A stretch of DNA of 64,000 nucleotides from positions 25,983 through 89,982 of the forward strand of contig VMFS01000003.1 of NCBI GenBank assembly GCA_007376185.1, given 5' to 3'. This DNA is from Parcubacteria group bacterium Gr01-1014_30 (GTDB taxonomy: Bacteria; Patescibacteriota; Minisyncoccia; Minisyncoccales; 2-12-FULL-40-12). Made by a program: the position numbers and the translations under genes. Below the pieces are notes generated by a model. It saw nothing but the letters and a program-made list of their open reading frames with translations, did not search any database and was not told the origin of the DNA. Below are positions 3,949 through 58,177 of the stretch, piece by piece. Every line of letters starts with the position of its first letter. Within the stretch, counting starts at the first letter, position 1.

Positions 3949-4073
3949 AGGAATCTGGAATCTTGAATTTAGAGTCTTGAACGAGAATACAGCATAAAAG
4001 AATAAAGGATCTTCTTGTATTCTATATTCTAAATTCCAATTCTAGATTCAAGATTCTGTATTCTCCATTCTGG
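3949..4073. repeat. Imperfect palindrome built from 7-nt periodic units (NNNgaat... / attcNNN...)
   Basis: Left arm: gaggaat ctggaat cttgaat ttagagt cttgaac gagaata. Right arm: tattcta tattcta aattcca attctag attcaag attctgt attctcc attctgg. Lies downstream of the 2246-3943 stop, so it is a possible terminator. Confidence 0.7.
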
Positions 4074-4832: not shown

Positions 4833-5559
4833 TAATAAAATTGGGATACTAGGTTATGGAGAAGTGGGGCGGGCGATTGCAAAGTTTTATAAAAATCCAA
4901 AAATCAAAGATCTAAATAGAAATGATGATTTGCAGGGAGTTGAGATTTTGCACATATGTATTCCCTGGAGCAAGAGGTTTGTTGAGATTGTTAAAAAAGA
5001 AATCAAAAAAATAAAGCCGCGCCTGACGATAATCCACTCCACGGTTGCGCCGGGGACCACTAAGAAAATCGGTGGCAGGATAGTTCACAGTCCGGTAAGA
5101 GGAGTGCACCCCAACTTATACGAGGGAATCAAGACATTCGTTAAATACATCGGAGCCGACAGCAAGAAAGCAGGTCTTGTGGCAAAGAAACACTTTGAAA
5201 GTTTGGGAATTAAAGCAAAAGTATTCTATCCTTCAGCAACAGCGGAACTTGGAAAGTTACTTGACACAACTTATTACGGCTTGGTTATTGCCTGGTATGG
5301 AGAAATGAAAAAATTGTGCGATAAATACGGCGTTAATTTTGACAACGCCGTAACAGATTTTAATAAAACCTACAACGAAGGGTATGCGAAATTGGGCAGA
5401 AAGAACGTGATAAGGCCAGTTCTTTTTCCGCCAAAAGGCGGAATAAAAGGACATTGTGTTGTGCAAAATACTGAGATCCTCAAAAAATATTTCAATAGCA
5501 AGGCATTAGATTTAATTTTAGAATACAGGCCCAACAAACAACATGGAACAAAAAACTGA
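4816..5559 (+). CDS. NAD(P)-binding Rossmann-fold protein, function unknown
   Basis: N-terminal IGILGYGEVGRAIAKFY (GxGxxG). No further family assignment is possible by eye. Confidence 0.35.
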   Translation: MSKKPNNKIGILGYGEVGRAIAKFYKNPKIKDLNRNDDLQGVEILHICIPWSKRFVEIVKKEIKKIKPRLTIIHSTVAPGTTKKIGGRIVHSPVRGVHPNLYEGIKTFVKYIGADSKKAGLVAKKHFESLGIKAKVFYPSATAELGKLLDTTYYGLVIAWYGEMKKLCDKYGVNFDNAVTDFNKTYNEGYAKLGRKNVIRPVLFPPKGGIKGHCVVQNTEILKKYFNSKALDLILEYRPNKQHGTKN

Positions 5560-6511: not shown

Positions 6512-7977
6512 GCACCTTCAAAGATGTTAAATCGTTTTTGTTTGACAATCTAAGCACGAGACAAACGATCTTTAAAAACACTTTTTGGCTTGGCCTTGCC
6601 GAGGGCTTTGGCAAGCTCTCTAAACTGGTTTTACTTATTTATGTCGCCAAAATCTTGGGAGCGACTGAGTACGGAAAGTTCAGTTTTGCTTTGGCCTTTG
6701 TCGGTTTGTTCGGAGTTGTGGCGAGTTTGGGATTGTCAAGAATAGTTGTGAGAGAGTTGGCGAGCGGCCAAGAAAAGGAAAAAGAAATTTCCTCCCTACT
6801 GTTTTTAAGAATTCTTTTGAGTTTGGTGGCGCTGGCTTTAATTTTGTCTGGCTCTTTCTTTGTTACTCAAGAACCTTTAATTAGAAAAGTAATTTGGATT
6901 TTGGGCCTATACTTTTTACTGGACACCTTTGCTTCTTTCTTAAACTTTTTCTTTCAGGCGCGCCAGAAAATGGAGTACGAATCATGGACGAGGATACTGC
7001 GCGCGCTGGCGCTGACGGGTCTTGGACTTTTCGTGATTTTCAGCTTTCCTTCCTTGGTGAATTTGAGCTACGCTTATCTGGCTGCCAGCTTAATCGCCCT
7101 AATTTTGGTCTTGATTTTTTTTCACATTAAAGTTGCAGCTTTATCTTTAAGTTTTAATAAATCAATTTGGCGGGATTACTTGGCAATGTCTTGGCCCCTG
7201 GCTTTATCGGCATTTTTCGCGATGGTTTACGGCCAAATTGACTCCGTAATTATGGGGTACTTAAATCAACTGACCCAAACCGGCTGGTATAACGCGGCTT
7301 ACAGGGTTGTCGGAGGCGTTTTGATTCCAATAGGCTTGGTTTCCACCAGTTTTTACCCGGCTTTGAGCAGGGCTTTCAAAGAATCGCGGGAAAAATTGCA
7401 AAAGATTTGGAATTATCAGTCAGAACTTATGCTCTTTTTGGCTCTGCCTATGACGGTGGGCGGCATAATTTTGGCCCCAAAAATAATTGATTTTATTTAT
7501 GACCAAACGTACGTTTCTTCGGTTTTGGCGTTTCAAATTTTGATTGTTATGGCAGGCATTGCCTTTTTGCAAAGTCCTTTCAGCAGTATGCTGTTGATTT
7601 TTAACCAGCAAACAAAGTTTTTATGGTCGGGGTTGCTAGGGGCCGCAGTAAACATTGGGCTTAACCTGTTTTTGATTCCTCGTTACAGCTTATACGGAGC
7701 GGCTTTGGCGGCTGTAATTACCGCCGCGGTGGTATTATTTCTTTACGTCTGGTTGACTTTGCGTTTTACTTCGGCAAGAATTTTTAATTTAAGATTTTTG
7801 GGGACAGGACTTTTAGCCGCTCTCTCAACGCTGATAATGTATTTTGTCATTACAATTCCCGGAGTTTACAATCTTAACGTTGTTTTTTCAATAATCATCG
7901 GAGCCCTTATTTATTTTGCGGTATTTTTCGCCGCGAAGTTCACGCTGGGTTACACGAAACCGTTTTTTAGAATATGA
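6502..7977 (+). CDS. Wzx-type polysaccharide flippase (MOP superfamily)
   Basis: ~490 aa with ~12-14 TM helices. N-terminal FKNTFWLGLAEGFGKLSKLVLLIYVAKILG is typical of the polysaccharide biosynthesis protein family. Confidence 0.7.
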   Translation: MPISTFKDVKSFLFDNLSTRQTIFKNTFWLGLAEGFGKLSKLVLLIYVAKILGATEYGKFSFALAFVGLFGVVASLGLSRIVVRELASGQEKEKEISSLLFLRILLSLVALALILSGSFFVTQEPLIRKVIWILGLYFLLDTFASFLNFFFQARQKMEYESWTRILRALALTGLGLFVIFSFPSLVNLSYAYLAASLIALILVLIFFHIKVAALSLSFNKSIWRDYLAMSWPLALSAFFAMVYGQIDSVIMGYLNQLTQTGWYNAAYRVVGGVLIPIGLVSTSFYPALSRAFKESREKLQKIWNYQSELMLFLALPMTVGGIILAPKIIDFIYDQTYVSSVLAFQILIVMAGIAFLQSPFSSMLLIFNQQTKFLWSGLLGAAVNIGLNLFLIPRYSLYGAALAAVITAAVVLFLYVWLTLRFTSARIFNLRFLGTGLLAALSTLIMYFVITIPGVYNLNVVFSIIIGALIYFAVFFAAKFTLGYTKPFFRI

Positions 7978-48309: not shown

Positions 48310-50461
48310 AGAAAAATTAGAGAGAATATGTCTTACCATTATTGAGTGGGGTGTTTATTTGGCCTTGTTTTCGCCTTTGATTTTTATCAGGAATTATTTT
48401 TTCCCTTTTGTTGCCCCCAAGACGATTTTTTTCCGTCTCATTATTGACGTTGTTTTCATTGCCTACCTGATATTGGCGGTTTCAATTCCAAAATATCGCC
48501 CTAAAATAACTCCCTTGTCTTTGGCAATCGCCGCCTTTTTAGCGATATTCTTTTTAACCGCAATTTTCGGAGTGAGCTTTCAGAGGAGTTTTTGGAGCGT
48601 TTTTGAAAGAATGACCGGACTTTTAACCTTCTTGCACCTTTTCGCTTTTTACGTTGTTTTGACGGCAGTTTTTACAGAAAGAAAGCAGTGGGAAAAGATT
48701 TTATTTGTTTCAATCGTAGCAGCCCTTGTTATTTGTTTTTACGCTTTGCTCGCAAAAGACCCTTTGACTCGCGGCGGAGGGACTTTGGGCAACTCGTCTT
48801 TTCTTTCCTCTTACCTTCTTTTTAACATCTTCTTTGCCGCAATTTTGATGGTGTCAAAAGCCGGCCTCTGGAGAGTTGTTTCAGGGGTGGCTCTGGCTAT
48901 TTTCTTGTTTGTTTTGTTCTTTAACCCGGTTACCGTTACCAAGGGAGTTGTTTCTGCCCTTCTCATAGGAGCGGTTTTGCTTGGAACAGGATATATGTTT
49001 TTTTCGCAAAACAGACTTCTGAAAAAACTGGCTGCACCCTTTTTTATTTTGATGGTTGTCGCGGGAGTACTTATCGTCAAGAGTTACCATTTTCAAGACA
49101 GACCTTTTAATTTATTGCAAATTCCCGACAGGTCACGGCAAATTGTCTGGAGTGTTGGTTGGCAGGCCTGGCAGGAAAGGTTTTGGTTTGGCTGGGGTTG
49201 GGAAAACTTCAACGTTCCCTTCGCCAAACACTACGACCCCGAACTTCCCCGGACCGCCGACATCTGGTACGACCGAGTTCACAACGTTGTCTTGGACATG
49301 GGTGTAAGTTCTGGAGTTGTTGGACTGTTAAGTTATTTATCAATCTTTTTCTTTGCTGCTTTAGGGTTGTTAAGACGCGCCAAAGCTGATGCCAGAGGCA
49401 ACTTTGTTCCGTTGGCTCTGGTTGCCTTACTTATTGCTTATTTTCTGCAAAACCTTTGGGTTTTTGACATGATTTCAAGCTACCTAATGTTTTTCTTAGC
49501 GCTGGCTTTCATAGGTTTTATGATTTCTTCTCAGGAAACAGACCAAACCAAGCTCAAAACTGTTCCGCTGTCGCCGTTTGTCGCGGCTGTTCTAATAATT
49601 TTGACTGTATTTGTTTTTTTTATCGGGAATATTCAGCCAGCCAGAGCTTCAAAAGCAATTCTAAGGGGGCTTGCCTTGCCTTTGGAGCAGTCCCTGCCCG
49701 CTTTTCAGAGCGCGTTTAAATTATCTCCGATGGTGAAGTTTGAAGGGCCCGAACAACTATCTTTTAGAATTACTGGCTTACTTTCTCAAGACAATCTAAA
49801 TAAAGAGCTGCTTCGCCAAGGGCTCCAGCTGGCAGAGCAAGAATTTAAAAAAGCTATTGAAAGGAACCCTTCAGACTTCAGAATGTATTTATTTTTGGGC
49901 AGGCATTACAATTATTTTTACTCTTTTGACAACGACCAAAAAAAGTTGGACAAAGCCGATGAATCTTTGATGAGAGCTATGGAGTTGAGCCCCGCAAACC
50001 AGCAGGTCTATCTTAACTTCGCGCAATTGCGGTTTTTGCAGGGCAGGGATGAGGAAGCCCTTGATTTTTTGAAAAAAGCAAGGGATTTAGAACCCCTATT
50101 TTTCGGAGTCAGATGGCACTTGCTTCGCGGTTACAAACTGGCCGGAAAATACGACTTGGCCTTAGCCGAGTTAAAAGAATTAGAGTTAGCTGGCCTTGAT
50201 TGGTGGGAGATCTTGGAAACTTTGAGAGAAGGCATAGAAATTCTTGAAAAAACTGGAGAGGAGCTTTCAGTTTTGGTTCCGCTTTACGAAAAAGGCGTCC
50301 AACTGAACCCTCAAGACATCGCTTTGTGGGAGAAGTTGGTTAATGGCTATATTGGTCTGGGCGAAGTAGAAAAGGCGAAAACAGCTGCGGAAAAATTGCG
50401 CGAGATAAGACCGGAATTTGCGCCTCAAGTTGAACAGCTCTTGAAACAGATGGGGTTTTAG
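48290..50461 (+). CDS. O-antigen ligase/polymerase-like membrane protein with C-terminal TPR domain (paralog of 1-2145)
   Basis: WGWENFNVPFAKHYDP...YDRVHNVVLDMGVSSG. TPR-like C-terminus (FLGRHYNYFYSFDNDQKKLDKADESLMRAMELSP etc.). ATG at 48290. Confidence 0.75.
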   Translation: MPFSPTKEKLERICLTIIEWGVYLALFSPLIFIRNYFFPFVAPKTIFFRLIIDVVFIAYLILAVSIPKYRPKITPLSLAIAAFLAIFFLTAIFGVSFQRSFWSVFERMTGLLTFLHLFAFYVVLTAVFTERKQWEKILFVSIVAALVICFYALLAKDPLTRGGGTLGNSSFLSSYLLFNIFFAAILMVSKAGLWRVVSGVALAIFLFVLFFNPVTVTKGVVSALLIGAVLLGTGYMFFSQNRLLKKLAAPFFILMVVAGVLIVKSYHFQDRPFNLLQIPDRSRQIVWSVGWQAWQERFWFGWGWENFNVPFAKHYDPELPRTADIWYDRVHNVVLDMGVSSGVVGLLSYLSIFFFAALGLLRRAKADARGNFVPLALVALLIAYFLQNLWVFDMISSYLMFFLALAFIGFMISSQETDQTKLKTVPLSPFVAAVLIILTVFVFFIGNIQPARASKAILRGLALPLEQSLPAFQSAFKLSPMVKFEGPEQLSFRITGLLSQDNLNKELLRQGLQLAEQEFKKAIERNPSDFRMYLFLGRHYNYFYSFDNDQKKLDKADESLMRAMELSPANQQVYLNFAQLRFLQGRDEEALDFLKKARDLEPLFFGVRWHLLRGYKLAGKYDLALAELKELELAGLDWWEILETLREGIEILEKTGEELSVLVPLYEKGVQLNPQDIALWEKLVNGYIGLGEVEKAKTAAEKLREIRPEFAPQVEQLLKQMGF

Positions 50462-50471
50462 AAAATACTTG

Positions 50472-50779
50472 ACCCCGCCCTTGAAAAGCTCCTCTTCTTT
50501 CTGTATGCACTACGTCTATGTTTTGAGAATGAACAACAAAAGAGCATATATTGGTTTCACCACTGACCTTAGAAAAAGAGTTCAAGAACATAAAACAGGC
50601 AAAGTATTTACAACTAGCAAATATCTCCCAGTTCGTCTTGTCTACTACGAATGCTACCTATCTAGGGATGATGCAGAAAGAAGAGAAAGAATGCTCAAAC
50701 GATATGGCAGCACGTGGTCTCATTTGATGCGGAGAATAACAAAAAGTTTCAGAGTATAAGAGCTTTTCAAGGGCGGGGT
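50472..50779. mobile_element. GIY-YIG gene cassette bracketed by a perfect 20-bp inverted repeat
   Basis: accccgcccttgaaaagctc at 50472-50491. Its exact reverse complement gagcttttcaagggcggggt is at 50760-50779. Confidence 0.65.
50505..50759 (+). CDS. Small GIY-YIG nuclease family protein (COG2827/UPF0213-like)
   Basis: MHYVYVLRMNNKRAYIGFTTDLRKRVQEHKTGK...LVYYECYLSRDDAERRERMLK. Confidence 0.75.
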   Translation: MHYVYVLRMNNKRAYIGFTTDLRKRVQEHKTGKVFTTSKYLPVRLVYYECYLSRDDAERRERMLKRYGSTWSHLMRRITKSFRV

Positions 50780-50807
50780 TGACAAATTCATTTCTTTTTG
50801 CTAAGCT
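50779..50807 (+). promoter_or_regulatory. Sigma70-like promoter TTGACA-17-TAAGCT
   Basis: TTGACA at 50779-50784 overlaps the outer edge of the right inverted repeat. TAAGCT at 50802-50807. Confidence 0.35.
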
Positions 50808-50813
50808 ACTATA

Positions 50814-50971
50814 GTGAGTGCCCCCGTCCTCTAGGCTGTTTATTATCTTTTTTAGACAATCAGTCACTCAGAAACAAGAATGATTTATGAGGACATTATA
50901 TACGGCATAGAGGGCGGGGAACTTCGCTAAGTCGACGACAGGCTTTCCTCGAGCAAAGCCTGTCGTTTTTT
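50814..50971 (+). ncRNA. Candidate ~160-nt non-coding transcript (promoter to intrinsic terminator, no real ORF)
   Basis: Long-range stem ccccgtcctcta (50822-50833) with tagagggcgggg (50908-50919), with one G-U pair. Ends in terminator cgacaggcttt-cctcgagc-aaagcctgtcg-tttttt (50935-50971). The only ORF is a 16-codon micro-ORF. Confidence 0.35.
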
Positions 50972-51105
50972 ATTGAGATATGAGGACTTCATATTTTGAG
51001 AGGCAAAATGAGTATATTTACATCCCTGATTTAAGAACCTATGCCAACGCATAAACTCACCCCACTCTGCTACTCACTATATTTATACCCACTGCCCACT
51101 GGCTA

Positions 51106-51185
51106 TTGACAGCTTATGAGGGTTTGCTATACTGACAATGTGATGACACTCTGGAGTATCCGCAAGGATAGCTCCAGATTTTTTA
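51106..51185 (+). promoter_or_regulatory. Near-consensus promoter (TTGACA-16-TATACT) followed within ~20 nt by a terminator hairpin
   Basis: TTGACA at 51106-51111. TATACT at 51128-51133. Hairpin ctggagtatcc-gcaa-ggatagctccag at 51151-51177, then tttttt. Confidence 0.4.
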
Positions 51186-51219
51186 TTTCTGGCTTATTTC
51201 AGCTTTGAGCTTGCGTAAA

Positions 51220-51654
51220 TCAATGAATTTGGCTCATAATCCGCTTGCCTGCTTTCTTTATTCGGTCAATCGGCACAGCAAAATCACTGTCTCCTGACGA
51301 AAGTACTGCTGTATCATATTTCTCTTTTGTGTCATCCATTTCAAAAGCAAGCTCCATATCCAAATTACCTTTCCACTCCTCTTTGCCGCTTTTTCGGTCT
51401 TTAATCCTTTTTACTACTTTTGTCCTCAAGATATAGCCGTTTATCTCAAGCATATCTAAAAATTTCCTCTGTCCCGTATTGAATTCGTCCACGCCTTTGT
51501 AGATAAAACACTTCGTCTCATCGCCACACTCTTTTTTAAGGTAGCTCATCAGTTTTTGATACGATATTTTCCAACCCAAAGTTCGCTGGGAATAAAATAC
51601 ATTTTCGGCGTCTATAAAAACATAAACCCTGTCTTTCACAAATTGGTGTAGCAT
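51220..51654 (-). CDS. NYN/LabA-like (PIN-related) domain protein
   Basis: VYVFIDAENVFYS...KGNLDMELAFEM...AVLSSGDSDFAVPIDRIKKAGKR. Confidence 0.7.
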   Translation of the reverse strand: MLHQFVKDRVYVFIDAENVFYSQRTLGWKISYQKLMSYLKKECGDETKCFIYKGVDEFNTGQRKFLDMLEINGYILRTKVVKRIKDRKSGKEEWKGNLDMELAFEMDDTKEKYDTAVLSSGDSDFAVPIDRIKKAGKRIMSQIH

Positions 51655-51690: not shown

Positions 51691-51948
51691 TTGTCACCTA
51701 TTTTCTTGCAAGACAGATTAAAGTTATCAATCCACCCCGACAAAATCTTCATTAAAACTTTAGCTTCCGGCGTTGACTTCTTGGGCTGGGTTCATTTCCC
51801 GGACCACAGAGTTTTAAGAACAACGACAAAGAGGAGGATGTTCAGAAGAATACAGAAATCACCAGCTCAAGAAACTATAAACTCATACCTTGGCTTAATT
51901 AGATGGGGTAATGCTTGCAAGCTGCGAAATAGAATCTTAGCCGATTAA
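51691..51948 (+). pseudogene. C-terminal remnant of a reverse transcriptase (DGR/retron/group II-like thumb region)
   Basis: FLQDRLKLSIHPDKIFIKTLASGVDFLGWVHF...RRMFRRI...INSYLGLIRWGNACKLRNRIL. No palm (YxDD) region is encoded upstream. Confidence 0.55.
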
Positions 51949-52213: not shown

Positions 52214-53173
52214 ATGGCGCTTTTGTTCAAAAAGAAAGTTTTACTAAAAAACCACACCACTTTTCGCATCGGCGGGCCGGCCAAGTGTTTTTACGAAGCG
52301 AAAACGGCAAAACATTTGATTGCCGCCTTGAGAAAAGCCAGAGAGTTGAAGTTGCCTTTTTTTGTTTTGGGTGAAGGCAGCAACCTTTTGGTTTCCGACA
52401 AGGGCTTTAACGGTTTGGTTGTTAAGATTCAAGATTCAAGATTCAAGATTCAAGATTCTTATCTTTGGGCGGCATCGGGCGTTTCTCTTTCAACTTTGGT
52501 GAGAGAAACCGGAAAACGAGGCCTTTCCGGCCTTGAGTGGGCTGGCGGTTTGCCAGGAACCTTTGGCGGAGCTGTTTTTGGGAACGCCGGCGCTTTTGGC
52601 GGAGAAACCAAAGACAATATTATTTGGGTTGAGGCCTTGGACCCCCACACCAATTTTGGTATGGGGGCGAGCAAAAACCTTAAAGTGAAGCGGTTTACTA
52701 AAGCGCAGTGCAAGTTTGGGTACAGAACTTCAATTTTTAAGGAGCGGGGATGGCTTGTGCTGTCTGCGTTGCTTTCGCTCAAAAGAGGAGACAAAAAGGC
52801 AATTCAAGGCGTAGCTTTAGCTCACATAAAACAGCGGAAAGAAAGGGGCCCTCTGGAATATCCCAACGCAGGCAGTATTTTTAAGAACTGCAAGGTGACT
52901 GGCGTGCCAAAAAAAGTTGCGGGAATGTTTAAAGGAGTTATAAAAGAAGACCCGTTTCCGGTTATTCCAACGGCCGCCATTATAGCCAAAACTCCGGGCC
53001 TAATGGGAATTAAAATAGGCGGAGCCCAAGTTTCCAAGAAGCATCCAAATTTCATCATAAACACTGGCGGAGCTAAAGCGATTGACGTGTTGTCGCTGAT
53101 AAACTTGGTGAAAAGAAAAGTGAAAAAAAGTTTCGGGGTGGACATAGCAGAAGAAATACGCTATATTGAGTAA
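52214..53173 (+). CDS. murB: UDP-N-acetylenolpyruvoylglucosamine reductase
   Basis: LLKNHTTFRIGGPAKCFYEAKT...LPFFVLGEGSNLLVSDKGFNG...FGYRTSIF...GSIFKN. The start was set at the ATG at 52214; the upstream extension is non-coding repeat DNA. Confidence 0.85.
   Translation: MALLFKKKVLLKNHTTFRIGGPAKCFYEAKTAKHLIAALRKARELKLPFFVLGEGSNLLVSDKGFNGLVVKIQDSRFKIQDSYLWAASGVSLSTLVRETGKRGLSGLEWAGGLPGTFGGAVFGNAGAFGGETKDNIIWVEALDPHTNFGMGASKNLKVKRFTKAQCKFGYRTSIFKERGWLVLSALLSLKRGDKKAIQGVALAHIKQRKERGPLEYPNAGSIFKNCKVTGVPKKVAGMFKGVIKEDPFPVIPTAAIIAKTPGLMGIKIGGAQVSKKHPNFIINTGGAKAIDVLSLINLVKRKVKKSFGVDIAEEIRYIE
52424..52458 (+). repeat. Perfect heptanucleotide tandem repeat (aagattc x5) inside murB
   Basis: Read directly. 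Encodes KIQDSRFKIQDS. Confidence 0.85.
52642..52667 (+). repeat. 26-nt palindrome inside murB sharing the cccccacacca arm with the 2132-2206 hairpin
   Basis: cccccacacc-aatttt-ggtatggggg. Encodes DPHTNFGMGA. Confidence 0.55.
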
Positions 53174-53677: not shown

Positions 53678-53738
53678 GGCAACGAACCCCGCCCTCTAAG
53701 CAGCGAAAATATAAAGCATAGAGGGCGGGGTTGTTGCC
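53678..53738. repeat. Long GC-rich hairpin of the CCCCGCCCT family (no T-tract)
   Basis: ggcaacgaaccccgccctcta-[20-nt loop]-tagagggcggggttgttgcc. Confidence 0.7.
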
Positions 53739-55886: not shown

Positions 55887-57125
55887 ATGAAAAAGTATTT
55901 TTTACTTTTGTTGATTTTAGCCATATTTTTGGTTCTTTATTTTTGGCCTTTTCCTGGAGTTCAAAAGCCAGCAGAGCCAGCCTTGGAGACGGAAGTTACG
56001 GACCAAATAACCGTTGATGAAGTTGAAGAACCAGATGAAGGTGAAGAGTCGGAAGGTCTTGAGGTGGTCGCCCGAGAACTGCAAATTCCTTGGGAAATAG
56101 CTTTCCTGCCTGCGCCTGACCGCCTGTCTGCGCAGGCAGGCGCAGGCAGGCAGGAAGGTTTGCCTGATGGCACTTTACTGGCAACCGAAAGGCCGGGAAA
56201 CTTGGCAGTTATTCGTGACGGAAAGGTCGTTAGTCGCATTGCGGTTTCCGGCGTTTACCACAGCGGCGAAGGGGGCTTGCTAGGCATGGCTTTGCATCCA
56301 GATTTCAGGGAGAACAAATTTTTGTATCTCTATTTCACATACAGGGAAGGCAGCCAAACCAAAAACAAAGTGGAGAGATATATTTTTGACGGCGACATTT
56401 TGTCAGACAGAAAAATTATTATTGACAACATTCCGGGAGCTGCAAATCACAACGGCGGCAGAATCGCTTTCGGGCCAGACAGCTACTTATATATAACTAC
56501 TGGAGACGCGCAGGCGCCTAATTTGGCGCAGAACATCAATTCGCTTGCCGGAAAGGTTTTGCGTTTAAGAGACGATGGTTCCATTCCCGAGGACAACCCC
56601 TTTGCTTCGGCCGGCTCAGCACAAGCTGACGCGGTTTGGTCTTTTGGCTATCGCAATCCGCAAGGCCTGGCGTGGGACCAAGCAGGGAGGTTATGGAGCA
56701 CAGAGCACGGCCCTTCTTCTTTGGTGTTGCCGAATTGCTGCCAGGACGAGGTTAATTTGATTGAGAAAGGAGCTAACTACGGCTGGCCAGATAGTGTTGG
56801 AGGTAAAGTAAAAGCAGGAACTATGGCGTCAAAACTGCATTCAGGCGGCGACACTTGGGCGCCATCTGGCGCGGCATACTATAACGGCTCTTTGTTTTTT
56901 GGCGGCCTAAGAGGCCAGAGTTTATATGAGGTGGTTTTACAGGGAGAGGAAGTTGTTGAATTAAAGAGACACTTTAAAGGAGAGTTCGGGCGGATCCGGG
57001 GGGTTTCTCTGGAGCCTGACGGTTTTTTGTACATTATCACTTCCAACAAAGACGGCAGAGGCGTTCCCCAAGCCGACGACGACAAGATAATTCGACTGAA
57101 CCCCAAACTCATCTTTAGTTATTAA
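55887..57125 (+). CDS. PQQ-dependent soluble sugar (glucose/sorbosone) dehydrogenase-like beta-propeller, membrane anchored, with an in-frame insert
   Basis: LGMALHPDF...YLYFTY, NHNGGRIAFGPDSYLYITTGD, GYRNPQGLAWD, GANYGWP. N-terminal TM helix plus an acidic linker. Confidence 0.75.
   Translation: MKKYFLLLLILAIFLVLYFWPFPGVQKPAEPALETEVTDQITVDEVEEPDEGEESEGLEVVARELQIPWEIAFLPAPDRLSAQAGAGRQEGLPDGTLLATERPGNLAVIRDGKVVSRIAVSGVYHSGEGGLLGMALHPDFRENKFLYLYFTYREGSQTKNKVERYIFDGDILSDRKIIIDNIPGAANHNGGRIAFGPDSYLYITTGDAQAPNLAQNINSLAGKVLRLRDDGSIPEDNPFASAGSAQADAVWSFGYRNPQGLAWDQAGRLWSTEHGPSSLVLPNCCQDEVNLIEKGANYGWPDSVGGKVKAGTMASKLHSGGDTWAPSGAAYYNGSLFFGGLRGQSLYEVVLQGEEVVELKRHFKGEFGRIRGVSLEPDGFLYIITSNKDGRGVPQADDDKIIRLNPKLIFSY
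56109..56162 (+). repeat. In-frame GC-rich palindromic module (54 nt, 18 codons)
   Basis: Encodes PAPDRLSAQAGAGRQEGL between IAFL and PDGTLLATER. Arms cctgcctgcgc / gcgcaggcagg. Confidence 0.75.
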
Positions 57126-57592: not shown

Positions 57593-58177
57593 ATGGTTTT
57601 AACCGAGTCGGTTCAAAAATTAAAGAAGGGAGACAAGGCGCCGGATTTTTCTTTGAAAGGCGTTGACGACAAAATATACTCTTTGAAGGACTTTGAAGGC
57701 CTGCCTGCCCCCCTGCGCGGTCAGGCGCAGGCAGGCAAACAAGGCCTTTTGGTTATATTTATGTGTAACCACTGCCCTTACGTGAGAGCGAAACTGCCGG
57801 TCATTGCCGAGCTTTACAAAAAGTGGGGTACTAGGATTTCTTTTTGCGGCATCAACAGCAATGACTCTGGATACGAAGGCGAAGGCATGGACAATATGAA
57901 GGTTTTTGCCAAAGAGAGAGCAATTGCTTTTCCTTACTTGTTTGACACACTTCAAGATGTTGCCAAGGCCTATGGAGCAACTTGTACTCCCGACCCGTTT
58001 TTATTCAATAAAAATTCTGAACTGGTTTTCCACGGACGAATTGACGACGCCACGGGCCCGGGCGAGACGGCCAAAGAGAAGACCATGGACGAGAATATCT
58101 CAAAAATGCTTTCAGGCCAAGAAATTTCTGACGAGTTCAAACCGTCAATGGGATGCTCCATTAAGTGGACCCCGTAA
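57593..58177 (+). CDS. Thioredoxin-fold (redoxin-like) protein with an in-frame insert; its stop codon lies inside a repeat
   Basis: KAPDFSLKGVDDKIYSLKDFEG...LLVIFMCNHCPYV (CxxC). The TAA at 58175-58177 lies within ccccgTAAtac of Y-repeat copy 3. Confidence 0.65.
   Translation: MVLTESVQKLKKGDKAPDFSLKGVDDKIYSLKDFEGLPAPLRGQAQAGKQGLLVIFMCNHCPYVRAKLPVIAELYKKWGTRISFCGINSNDSGYEGEGMDNMKVFAKERAIAFPYLFDTLQDVAKAYGATCTPDPFLFNKNSELVFHGRIDDATGPGETAKEKTMDENISKMLSGQEISDEFKPSMGCSIKWTP
57701..57745 (-). repeat. In-frame palindromic module (45 nt, 15 codons), same family as 56109-56162 but in opposite orientation
   Basis: The reverse complement tgcctgcctgcgcctgaccgcgcag matches tcctgcctgcgcctgaccgcctgtctgcgcag of the other copy. 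Encodes LPAPLRGQAQAGKQG. Confidence 0.7.

Follow-up and report, generated by a model that had tools for sequence, protein, structure and literature searches.

A 64,000-nt stretch of contig VMFS01000003.1 from Parcubacteria group bacterium Gr01-1014_30 (hereafter the window) carries a small GIY-YIG nuclease gene enclosed in an inverted repeat. The open reading frame (ORF) occupies 50505–50759, running from an ATG at 50505 to a TAA at 50757–50759, and has 84 codons followed by a stop. On either side stand the arms of a perfect 20-nt inverted repeat: the left arm ACCCCGCCCTTGAAAAGCTC at 50472–50491 and, as its exact reverse complement, the right arm at 50760–50779. Thirteen nucleotides separate the end of the left arm from the ATG, and the right arm begins one base past the stop codon. 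None of 100 dinucleotide-preserving shuffles produced a match to the 20-nt arm with three or fewer mismatches, confirming the perfect repeat reported around this ORF in the initial annotation. Pairing can be extended imperfectly to 27 nt (89% complementary), and the unit measured from CCCC to GGGG is 306 bp long (50473–50778). Coordinates of the gene and of the arms, motifs and hairpins described with it refer to the plus strand. The copy is intergenic, lying downstream of a gene for an O-antigen-ligase/TPR-like protein, with no Rfam, tRNA or intron match at the locus. Rfam returned no matches for the whole window at gathering thresholds and none for 50300–51200 at E ≤ 10, so the bracket and a neighbouring hairpin (hairpin b, described below) fit no curated RNA family. 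ARAGORN found no tRNA in the window; the tRNA adjacency seen in relatives is therefore not applicable to this copy.

The gene was classified as encoding a single-domain GIY-YIG nuclease of 84 aa from Pfam, alignment, AlphaFold2 modelling and the ratio of nonsynonymous (dN) to synonymous (dS) divergence. The Pfam GIY-YIG profile (PF01541) matched residues 1–66 with E = 1e-12; other Pfam matches (MUG113, T5orf172) were weak, overlapped this region and belong to related families, and no extra domain was found. All residues invariant in the family (Y5, Y15, G17, R25, H29 and E49), which correspond to GIY-YIG catalytic positions, are kept in the window protein. Its AlphaFold2 model is a compact single domain (predicted local distance difference test score of 96), and the nearest solved structures in Foldseek are UPF0213 BH0048 (1zg2), the nuclease domain of Slx1 and the catalytic domain of I-TevI; 1zg2 is also the top hit by sequence (E = 8e-7). 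No exact match to the protein is on record. Related loci and proteins are referred to below by L and P numbers. The closest homologue, P0001 at locus L001, is 82% identical, and its ORF is bracketed by a perfect 20-nt repeat of its own (ACCCCACCCTTGAAAACTTT / AAAGTTTTCAAGGGTGGGGT), in which every difference from the window arms is compensated in the partner arm. For the ORF, dN ranged from 0.09 to 0.21 and dS exceeded 1 or was saturated, showing purifying selection. As synonymous sites are saturated, neutral positions have turned over while the arms stayed complementary. A profile search put the size of the clade at no fewer than 7,999 protein clusters at 90% identity, and no Neisseria protein was among the best 120 profile matches listed. 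The top profile match, P0014 (134 aa), scored 163 bits, about twice the usual score, and is possibly a tandem or fused double GIY-YIG protein.

Between the left arm and the ORF lies the segment CTCTTCTTTCTGTAT (50492–50506), which pairs with a segment inside the ORF at 50671–50685 (15 nt, 93%). This pairing was found by repeat search and RNA folding and is predicted to sequester the start-codon region in RNA. The predicted RNA fold of the element has a minimum free energy of −91.7 kcal/mol (z = −3.8), with the AUG paired. The tetranucleotide TTGA, as read from the sequence, occurs on both sides of the unit. The left copy (50469–50472) lies directly outside CCCC...GGGG, and the right copy forms part of an outward-facing TTGACA followed after 17 nt by TAAGCT (50779–50807). 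This promoter-like site is weak in the window, where it was not called by a promoter scan, and much better in relatives, in which one TTGA copy is likewise part of a TTGACA box followed 16–17 nt later by a TAnnnT hexamer (TAGAAT, TATACT, TAAACT or TAAAAT). The ORF may be oriented either way relative to the box. TTGA flanks both sides of the intergenic copies in the window, L109, L111, L008 and L002; it is present as the reverse complement in L001 and as TTTGA in L010. The TTGA beside the window unit represents a duplicated target site or else belongs to a recognition motif.

Bracketing by inverted repeats extends well beyond this locus. The census set consisted of 80 fetched genomic loci, the best 80 of more than 573 matches to one peptide pattern, mostly from Patescibacteria but also from Omnitrophota, Planctomycetota and further phyla. 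The score of a locus was that of its strongest gap-free inverted repeat with one arm in the 90 nt preceding the ORF and the other near the stop codon, and controls were made by pairing upstream and downstream flanks from different loci. A score of at least 12 was reached by 50 of the 82 related loci and by 2% of the mismatched-flank controls, and a score of at least 14 by 40 of the 82 and by 0.7% of controls. The initial annotation had proposed asking whether COG2827 GIY-YIG genes are systematically flanked by inverted repeats; with these frequencies and the strong covariation described next, the attempt to refute the idea failed, and the bracket is a trait of the family and no local accident. 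Compact GC-rich hairpins were found within 90 nt of the gene in 14 of 34 bracket-less loci and in 5.7% of controls. Many of these contain the palindrome CGTCGCTCGCGAGCGACG, which recurs across unrelated loci. The family thus shows two arrangements, one in which the gene splits a hairpin and lies within it and one in which it neighbours a complete hairpin.

Covariation was analysed in 13 elements of the window's own arm type (the CCCCGCCC clade). In these, the arms pair perfectly over 19–20 nt and pairing then stops abruptly, and the CCCC-to-GGGG unit measures 290–316 nt. Across the 13 elements, 94% of arm cells are paired and 10 of the 20 pairs have changed on both sides. Compensatory cells numbered 47, against 14.8 ± 3.1 in shuffles, none of 500 of which reached the observed value; slid-partner controls gave only 36–63% pairing. 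Within the clade, conservation is confined to the outer 10 nt of the arm (CCCCGCCCTT; ACCCCGCCCT in the window), the inner 10 nt varying freely provided that pairing holds. Compensatory change maintains the pairing of the arms, whether through selection or through a copying process.

The boundaries of the element are most clearly seen in two 16S rRNA genes, L025 and L028, which carry it at different places and so provide each other's empty site. At the tip of h44, the empty gene (L028) reads ...CACCCGAAGGCTCCGCAAGGGGACCAAGGTG... and the filled gene (L025) reads ...CACCCGAA[CCCCGCCC..ORF..GGGCGGGG]GAAGGTG..., where the inserted unit stands in outer square brackets. At h17, the empty gene (L025) reads TATGAGGGACGAACAAATGACGG and the filled gene (L028) reads TATGTGGGAAGAAT[CCCCACACC..ORF..GGTGTGGGG]TTGTGACGG. 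It follows from these reciprocal sites that the insert boundaries coincide exactly with the outer ends of the arms and that the arm sequence is not derived from the host gene. The unit of about 290–316 bp is a discrete insertion bounded by inverted repeats; terminal inverted repeats stand at the insertion boundaries of the 16S sites, and arms of 19–20 nt were found in all 13 clade elements. For the window copy itself, an empty site was sought through orthologues of the gene upstream of the element; the best of them is 58% identical and lacks both the element and the hairpin.

Ribosomal RNA genes are a recurrent host. Rfam placed the ORF inside 23S rRNA genes in L019, L014 and L065 and inside a 16S rRNA gene in L028, and blastn added the 16S-embedded ORF of L025. 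In Escherichia coli numbering, the 23S sites fall at about 540–548 (helix 25; L019), about 1169–1181 (helix 45; L065) and about 272; in 16S rRNA the insertions occupy the tips of h17 (L028) and h44 (L025). Helices 25 and 45 are the classical sites from which RNase III excises intervening sequences (IVSs). The 23S gene of L019 with the helix-25 element also holds two group I introns (Rfam RF00028) at 6677–6932 and 7520–7811.

A second host is the RNase P RNA gene. In four loci (L012, L026, L063 and L067), the right arm is followed directly by AGGAAAGTCCG, a strand of P4 of RNase P RNA, and Rfam confirmed a match to RNase P RNA in L012, L063 and L067. In L012, L026 and L067, pairing as expected of helix P1 joins the stretch immediately 5' of the left arm to a segment 360–570 nt downstream. 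Since this pairing spans the insert, the element lies inside the RNase P RNA gene, at P3. Each of these loci (at about 4966–5280) has an ORF of about 290 nt in P3, and the Rfam model aligns only from the right arm onwards; RNase P RNA genes with a P3 insert are therefore likely to be misannotated at their 5' end. The arm type CCCCGCCCTTTTGG is identical in a 16S gene (L025), an RNase P RNA gene (L026) and other contexts (L056, L018), which shows that the arms travel with the ORF.

Transfer RNA and tmRNA genes form the third context. In 30 of the 80 loci, such a gene lies within 40 nt of the ORF or overlaps it, and in all 30 it is on the same strand. Taken together, the relatives occupy many non-homologous sites and strongly favour GC-rich helix tips and the ends of stable-RNA genes, always on the strand of the host RNA. 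At tRNA and tmRNA 5' ends, the junctions follow the pattern X-s-[X'...ORF...X]-s-rest, as in L040 (GAGGGGC GGTTA [GCCCCTC...GAGGGGC] GGTTAGCTCAG) and in L112, where the element lies between smpB and the tmRNA gene (GGGG ATGA [CCCC...GGGG] ATGATCGG). The duplicated host sequence at these sites is 8–14 nt long and not of fixed length, and its upstream copy is sometimes degenerate. Like the flanking TTGA copies, these duplications resemble insertion footprints. At the junctions of L040, L045, L070, L076, L068, L087, L047, L112 and L113, the host sequence is present three times. There, the ends of the arms correspond to the opening nucleotides of the neighbouring tRNA or tmRNA (in L047, to the 3' end of the tRNA), and outside the opposite arm stands one more direct copy. 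In L050, L023, L069 and L049, the 5' half of the downstream tRNA is duplicated 60–90 nt upstream of the ORF, and this half-duplication is interrupted by a compact palindromic hairpin such as CCCCGTCGCTCGCGAGCGACGGGG.

Hairpins with similar ends and no ORF also occur in the window. The motif CCCCGCCCT is found five times in the 64 kb against 0.5 expected, a count reached by none of 100 shuffles. All five occurrences lie at hairpin ends (both arms of the bracket and of hairpin c, and the right arm of hairpin b), and the three elements carrying them lie within 3.3 kb. With one mismatch allowed, the arm motif CCCCGCCC matched the window 34 times where 29 matches were expected, which is no enrichment. 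Hairpin b (50821–50919) has imperfect arms GCCCCCGTCCTCTAGGC / GCATAGAGGGCGGGG around a loop of about 65 nt, and its left arm holds only an imperfect CCCCCGTCCT. Hairpin c (53678–53738), which follows rpsI, has arms AACCCCGCCCTCTAAGC / GCATAGAGGGCGGGGTT that pair over 17 nt at 94% and can be extended with a bulge. Hairpins b and c are homologous beyond the end of the stem and have only the outer 10 or so nucleotides in common with the bracket. Hairpin b is probably a decayed sister element; tblastn at E ≤ 100 found neither a second GIY-YIG gene in the window nor a relic of one in its loop. A further ORF-less hairpin, of another arm subtype (CCCCCACACC), lies at 2131–2206 with arms GCCCCCACACCATAACGAGCAG / CTGCTCGTTTGGTGTGGGGG (21 bp, one bulge). 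It overlaps the stop of the gene at 43–2145, a paralogue of the gene upstream of the GIY-YIG element, and its arm type matches the brackets of L087, L083 and L041, which belong to other GIY-YIG subfamilies. The initial annotation had listed hairpins b and c as empty hairpins with the motif of the bracket, which holds for both arms of hairpin c and for the right arm of hairpin b only. Its picture of modules littering the genome does not fit a window in which three elements have the CCCCGCCCT end and one more is of another subtype.

Two related loci bear on the origin of such hairpins. At 1241–1380 of L010, a hairpin of the same type as b and c (arms ACCCCGCCCTCTATGC / GCTTAGAGGGCGGGGT) has in its loop a 5'-truncated GIY-YIG ORF ending ...REKKLKYYGSAWRALKKRISA*. 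In L044, an ORF-less hairpin occupies the position at tRNA-Ala that is filled by full elements elsewhere, with the same duplication. Hairpins without an ORF or with a truncated one thus exist with the same ends as the full elements. Because the L010 hairpin of the b/c type holds a truncated ORF, the ORF-less forms are more likely decay products than, as had been suggested, substrates awaiting mobilisation. The stretch 50779–50975, comprising the weak TTGACA-17-TAAGCT, hairpin b and a clear intrinsic-terminator-like hairpin with a T run detected by terminator scan (50934–50975), is possibly a small transcription unit; it could encode a small RNA or be no more than the remains of an element with a terminator behind it. 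At 56103–56156 and 57686–57749 lie imperfect palindromes composed of GCAGGCAGG/CCTGCCTGC units. These are probably the in-frame palindromes that the initial annotation had tied to the nuclease, a link that we rejected, as they have no sequence in common with the CCCCGCCC arms.

The closest parallel among characterised systems is the Ssn family of single-domain GIY-YIG proteins of about 94 aa (CDD cd10448; Chenal et al. 2025, Nat Commun 16:2388; PMC11893778). Ssn nucleases bind the NTS/SRM hairpin repeat as single-stranded DNA (ssDNA) and cut site-specifically next to the hairpin, the family being marked by inactivity on double-stranded DNA and RNA; repeats flank the ssn gene on both sides in 42% of homologues, and hundreds of repeats per genome are reported in Ssn hosts (PMC11893778). 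The view that the function of this protein class is largely unknown is therefore outdated, and the core idea of a nuclease tied to its own flanking hairpins was already published in 2025 for Ssn, a sister group. Against plasmid records, tblastn retrieved homologues in Sinorhizobium, Shinella, Rhizobium and Azospirillum, with inverted SRMs on both sides of the gene in the last three and upstream only in Sinorhizobium; the Azospirillum repeat is nearly identical to the Neisseria NTS. The window protein aligns with these four SRM-flanked homologues over nearly its full length at 35–40% identity (pairwise BLASTP, E from 1e-14 to 2e-12), a comparison that stands proxy for the family's own criteria, namely BLASTP E < 1e-10 over at least 75% coverage against SsnA of N. 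meningitidis (CAX49033.1), or assignment to cd10448. Like Ssn, it is a single-domain GIY-YIG protein (84 aa) whose gene is bracketed by an inverted, hairpin-forming sequence with a C-rich stem and a GTCA-type flank, and hairpins cluster around the gene. The flanks bear a loose likeness, the minus strand of the window reading TGTCA-ACCCCGCCC...GGGCGGGG-TCAAG and the NTS CGTCA...TCYRG.

Other features differ. Here one hairpin is split by the gene, whereas Ssn genes lie between two complete hairpins of about 30 nt. The C-terminal W..WK..LIE..NP.W.DLY of the four SRM-flanked homologues is absent from the window protein, the window's few hairpins contrast with the repeat load of Ssn hosts, and the relatives are inserted into genes for rRNA or RNase P RNA or directly adjoin those for tRNA and tmRNA. 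The SRM pattern HGTCWY..YYVSBRH..WNVSBRG..RNCYNB had no match within 500 bp on either side of the gene or elsewhere in the window; among the positive controls, the NTS matched and L088–L091 had one to five SRMs each (on both sides in L089–L091, upstream only in L088).

The initial annotation compared the locus to REPtrons, an idea that is partly right, and the discoverers of Ssn drew the same kind of analogy, likening NTS-ssnA-NTS to insertion sequences and to REP/IS200-IS605 systems (PMC11893778). The likeness lies in a nuclease gene with inverted flanks formed by its presumed ssDNA hairpin substrate and in dispersed ORF-less repeats. It does not extend to the enzyme, which is a hydrolytic GIY-YIG protein, not an HUH/Y1 transposase, and lacks covalent strand-transfer chemistry. 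For the repeats it is only partial: the flanks are inverted, but each window arm makes up one half of a single hairpin instead of forming a palindrome by itself. A strict REPtron is rejected, since the fold is GIY-YIG instead of the Y1_Tnp of RAYT.

In Salmonella, Leptospira, Coxiella and others, RNase III cuts intervening sequences out of 23S rRNA; the ORFs of IVSs encode, as far as is known, S23p-type proteins and not a nuclease. Relatives of the window element resemble IVSs in lying at the tips of helices 25 and 45, with terminal inverted repeats that extend the stem, and some IVSs also carry an ORF; the window copy differs in being intergenic, not in rRNA at a helix tip. In the Candidate Phyla Radiation, rRNA genes interrupted by non-intron insertions that carry GIY-YIG ORFs were reportedly noted by Brown in 2015. 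In the passages retrieved from Tsurumaki et al. (2024, PMC11270868), GIY-YIG ORFs are described in non-intron rRNA insertions of this radiation, and all GIY-YIG proteins are encoded by insertions unlike introns and judged to lie outside a homing context. Neither 'inverted repeat' nor 'hairpin' turned up in a word search of the paper, and the retrieved passages mention no non-rRNA contexts and no link to Ssn. These insertions are the same phenomenon as that in L014, L019, L025, L028 and L065.

With GIY-YIG homing endonucleases (I-TevI, Seg/Mob), the window protein has in common the catalytic fold and a selfish, insertion-associated lifestyle. It differs in having no DNA-binding domain and no intron, and the insertion sites are diverse, not one cognate site. 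TIGR01453 matched with 18.6 bits, below its cut-off of 56. We reject a homing endonuclease carried by a group I intron, the protein having 84 aa and no second domain and the locus no intron match. UPF0213/YhbQ and Slx1, the latter a structure-selective nuclease for branched DNA, are nearest among solved structures; they are host proteins with no reported flanking repeats and are 20–32% identical.

On balance, we lean towards reading the 306-bp unit of the window as one copy of a selfish mini-element, an Ssn-like GIY-YIG gene within 20-bp terminal inverted repeats. When the DNA becomes single-stranded, in replication or transformation, the arms would pair. The nuclease would bind the conserved stem base CCCCGCCC/GGGCGGGG with its GTCA...TCAAG-like flanks, by analogy to Ssn on NTS hairpins. 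Were the nuclease then to cut similar G-rich stems or sites elsewhere, repair by the host would copy the unit into them, leaving short duplications such as TTGA in the window and the tRNA or tmRNA 5' ends in other loci. In transcripts, the stem of about 20 bp around the ORF could allow RNase III to excise the unit from host RNAs, as for 23S IVSs, and by occluding the start codon could keep expression low. The intergenic window copy would probably be read through from the upstream gene. Hairpins b, c and 2131–2206 would be decayed derivatives that may now serve as 3'-end hairpins.

Several points weigh against this interpretation. Cleavage of ssDNA hairpins is extrapolated from homologues of 35–40% identity that have a different C-terminal region, and the SRM pattern gave no matches in the window and four in 676 kb of related loci. 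As GIY-YIG enzymes only hydrolyse DNA, the insertion chemistry would have to come from host repair, and the X-s-[X'...X]-s pattern fits no standard insertion mechanism. The 16S insertion of L028 shows no target duplication, so the TTGA of the window may be a recognition motif and not a duplication. Intergenic DNA at the 58%-identical orthologue cannot be aligned with the window, which makes it a weak empty site only. The census drew on a single peptide pattern and the best 80 of those more than 573 matches, not on whole genomes, and 32 of the 82 loci have no bracket. As the window copy lies outside stable-RNA genes, the RNase III argument applies to it only indirectly. Finally, arm mismatches (11 G·T and 7 C·A) show no strand bias, so selection at the RNA level and at the DNA level are inseparable.

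One alternative operates at the RNA level only. The repeat would serve RNA processing or stability as an RNase III stem, like those of 23S IVSs and those flanking rRNAs, and would let an ORF ride along in stable-RNA transcripts; the hairpin would not be a substrate of the nuclease, and the unit would spread by ordinary recombination or by homing at double-stranded targets. The ORF lies on the strand of the host RNA in all 30 tRNA/tmRNA loci and in all rRNA and RNase P loci, insertions sit at helix tips including those of helices 25 and 45, the stems measure 19–20 bp, and the RNA fold of the window unit has z = −3.8; the non-intron GIY-YIG insertions described in rRNA genes of the Candidate Phyla Radiation, in the passages retrieved (PMC11270868), agree with this. 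It leaves unexplained, however, the perfect arms of intergenic copies such as that of the window and of copies antisense to the promoter-like box (L001, L010), and also the conservation of the flanks and of the outermost 10 nt of the arm. Nor does it account for the homology to nucleases that bind DNA hairpins beside their own genes, and homing would require a protein without a DNA-binding domain to recognise a long double-stranded target. We consider it unlikely, though it is the most serious competitor of the mini-element.

Somewhat less probable still is that the gene is a canonical Ssn member and nothing new, that is, a domesticated nuclease for ssDNA restriction or transformation control with cognate repeats, as in Neisseria. 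The size and single GIY-YIG domain of the protein (84 aa), its 35–40% identity to SRM-flanked homologues, the resemblance of the minus-strand flanks (GTCA-ACCCCGCCC...GGGCGGGG-TCAAG) to NTS CGTCA...TCYRG and the clustering of hairpins near the gene all agree with it. These are offset by the absence of the SRM pattern and of the C-terminal W..WK..LIE..NP.W.DLY, by a gene inside a split hairpin and not between two complete ones, and by a load of three or four repeats in 64 kb against hundreds per genome in Ssn hosts. Insertion into rRNA and RNase P RNA genes is, moreover, the behaviour of a selfish element and not of a domesticated gene.

That the hairpins are ordinary intrinsic terminators or 3'-end stabilisers, into one of which the GIY-YIG gene landed, with CCCCGCCCT reflecting GC-rich terminator stems, seems improbable. 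Hairpin c, the hairpin at 2131–2206 and the bracket do lie just after co-directional genes and are followed by T-rich sequence, and the lack of enrichment of CCCCGCCC with one mismatch suits this idea. Yet the terminator scan called none of the three while calling a true terminator at 50934. The arms also accompany the ORF into rRNA, RNase P RNA and tRNA settings and are missing from the empty 16S sites, and L010 has a truncated ORF inside arms of the b/c type. A chance palindrome was rejected.

A bolder extension of the mini-element interpretation is possible, and we put it forward tentatively: these units may be the smallest autonomous mobile elements of bacteria, each an Ssn-type nuclease gene in the loop of its own hairpin. 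They would invade G-rich helix tips and ends of stable RNAs (helices 25 and 45 of 23S rRNA, h17 and h44 of 16S rRNA, P3 of RNase P RNA and the 5' ends of tRNAs and tmRNAs), be neutralised by RNase III and, on loss of the ORF, leave IVS-like or terminator-like hairpins. If true, this would explain how IVS-type insertions, hitherto of unclear origin, can move.

Metagenome assemblies are largely left out of RefSeq. The published Ssn survey covered RefSeq reference genomes (PMC11893778), and uncultured lineages (the Candidate Phyla Radiation, Omnitrophota and others) probably fell outside it. The literature searched gave no description of the bracket, of the RNase P, tRNA or tmRNA contexts, or of a link of such elements to Ssn. 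What appears to be undescribed is the gene-inside-hairpin architecture, the size and spread of the group across uncultured lineages represented by metagenomes only, and the presence of its members within RNase P RNA, at the ends of tRNA and tmRNA genes, and at classical IVS sites. The nuclease–hairpin partnership known from Ssn would thereby extend to a very large clade (at least 7,999 clusters at 90% identity), and the gene-in-hairpin architecture points to a mobile element rather than a host function. Three separate observations are joined: the non-intron rRNA insertions of the Candidate Phyla Radiation that carry GIY-YIG ORFs, the classical IVS sites at helices 25 and 45, and small GIY-YIG genes beside tRNA genes. 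Such a clade would offer diverse natural nuclease–hairpin pairs for ssDNA tools, the arms giving the predicted substrate of each enzyme. Annotators of these lineages should expect that a protein gene can lie within a helix at RNase P RNA, rRNA and tRNA loci.

Three further features of the window were noted. An intergenic, AT-rich imperfect palindrome of 52 nt (71% complementary), with GAATCT/AGATTC-like units, lies at 3951–4063. Between a minus-strand gene (51220–51654) and murB, an ORF of 85 aa (51691–51948; …GVDFLGWVHFPDHRVLRTTTKRRMFRRI…) presumably resembles a C-terminal fragment of a reverse transcriptase. Within the murB-like ORF, positions 52424–52451 are an exact tandem duplication of AAGATTCAAGATTC (two copies), which translates as KIQDSRFKIQDS.

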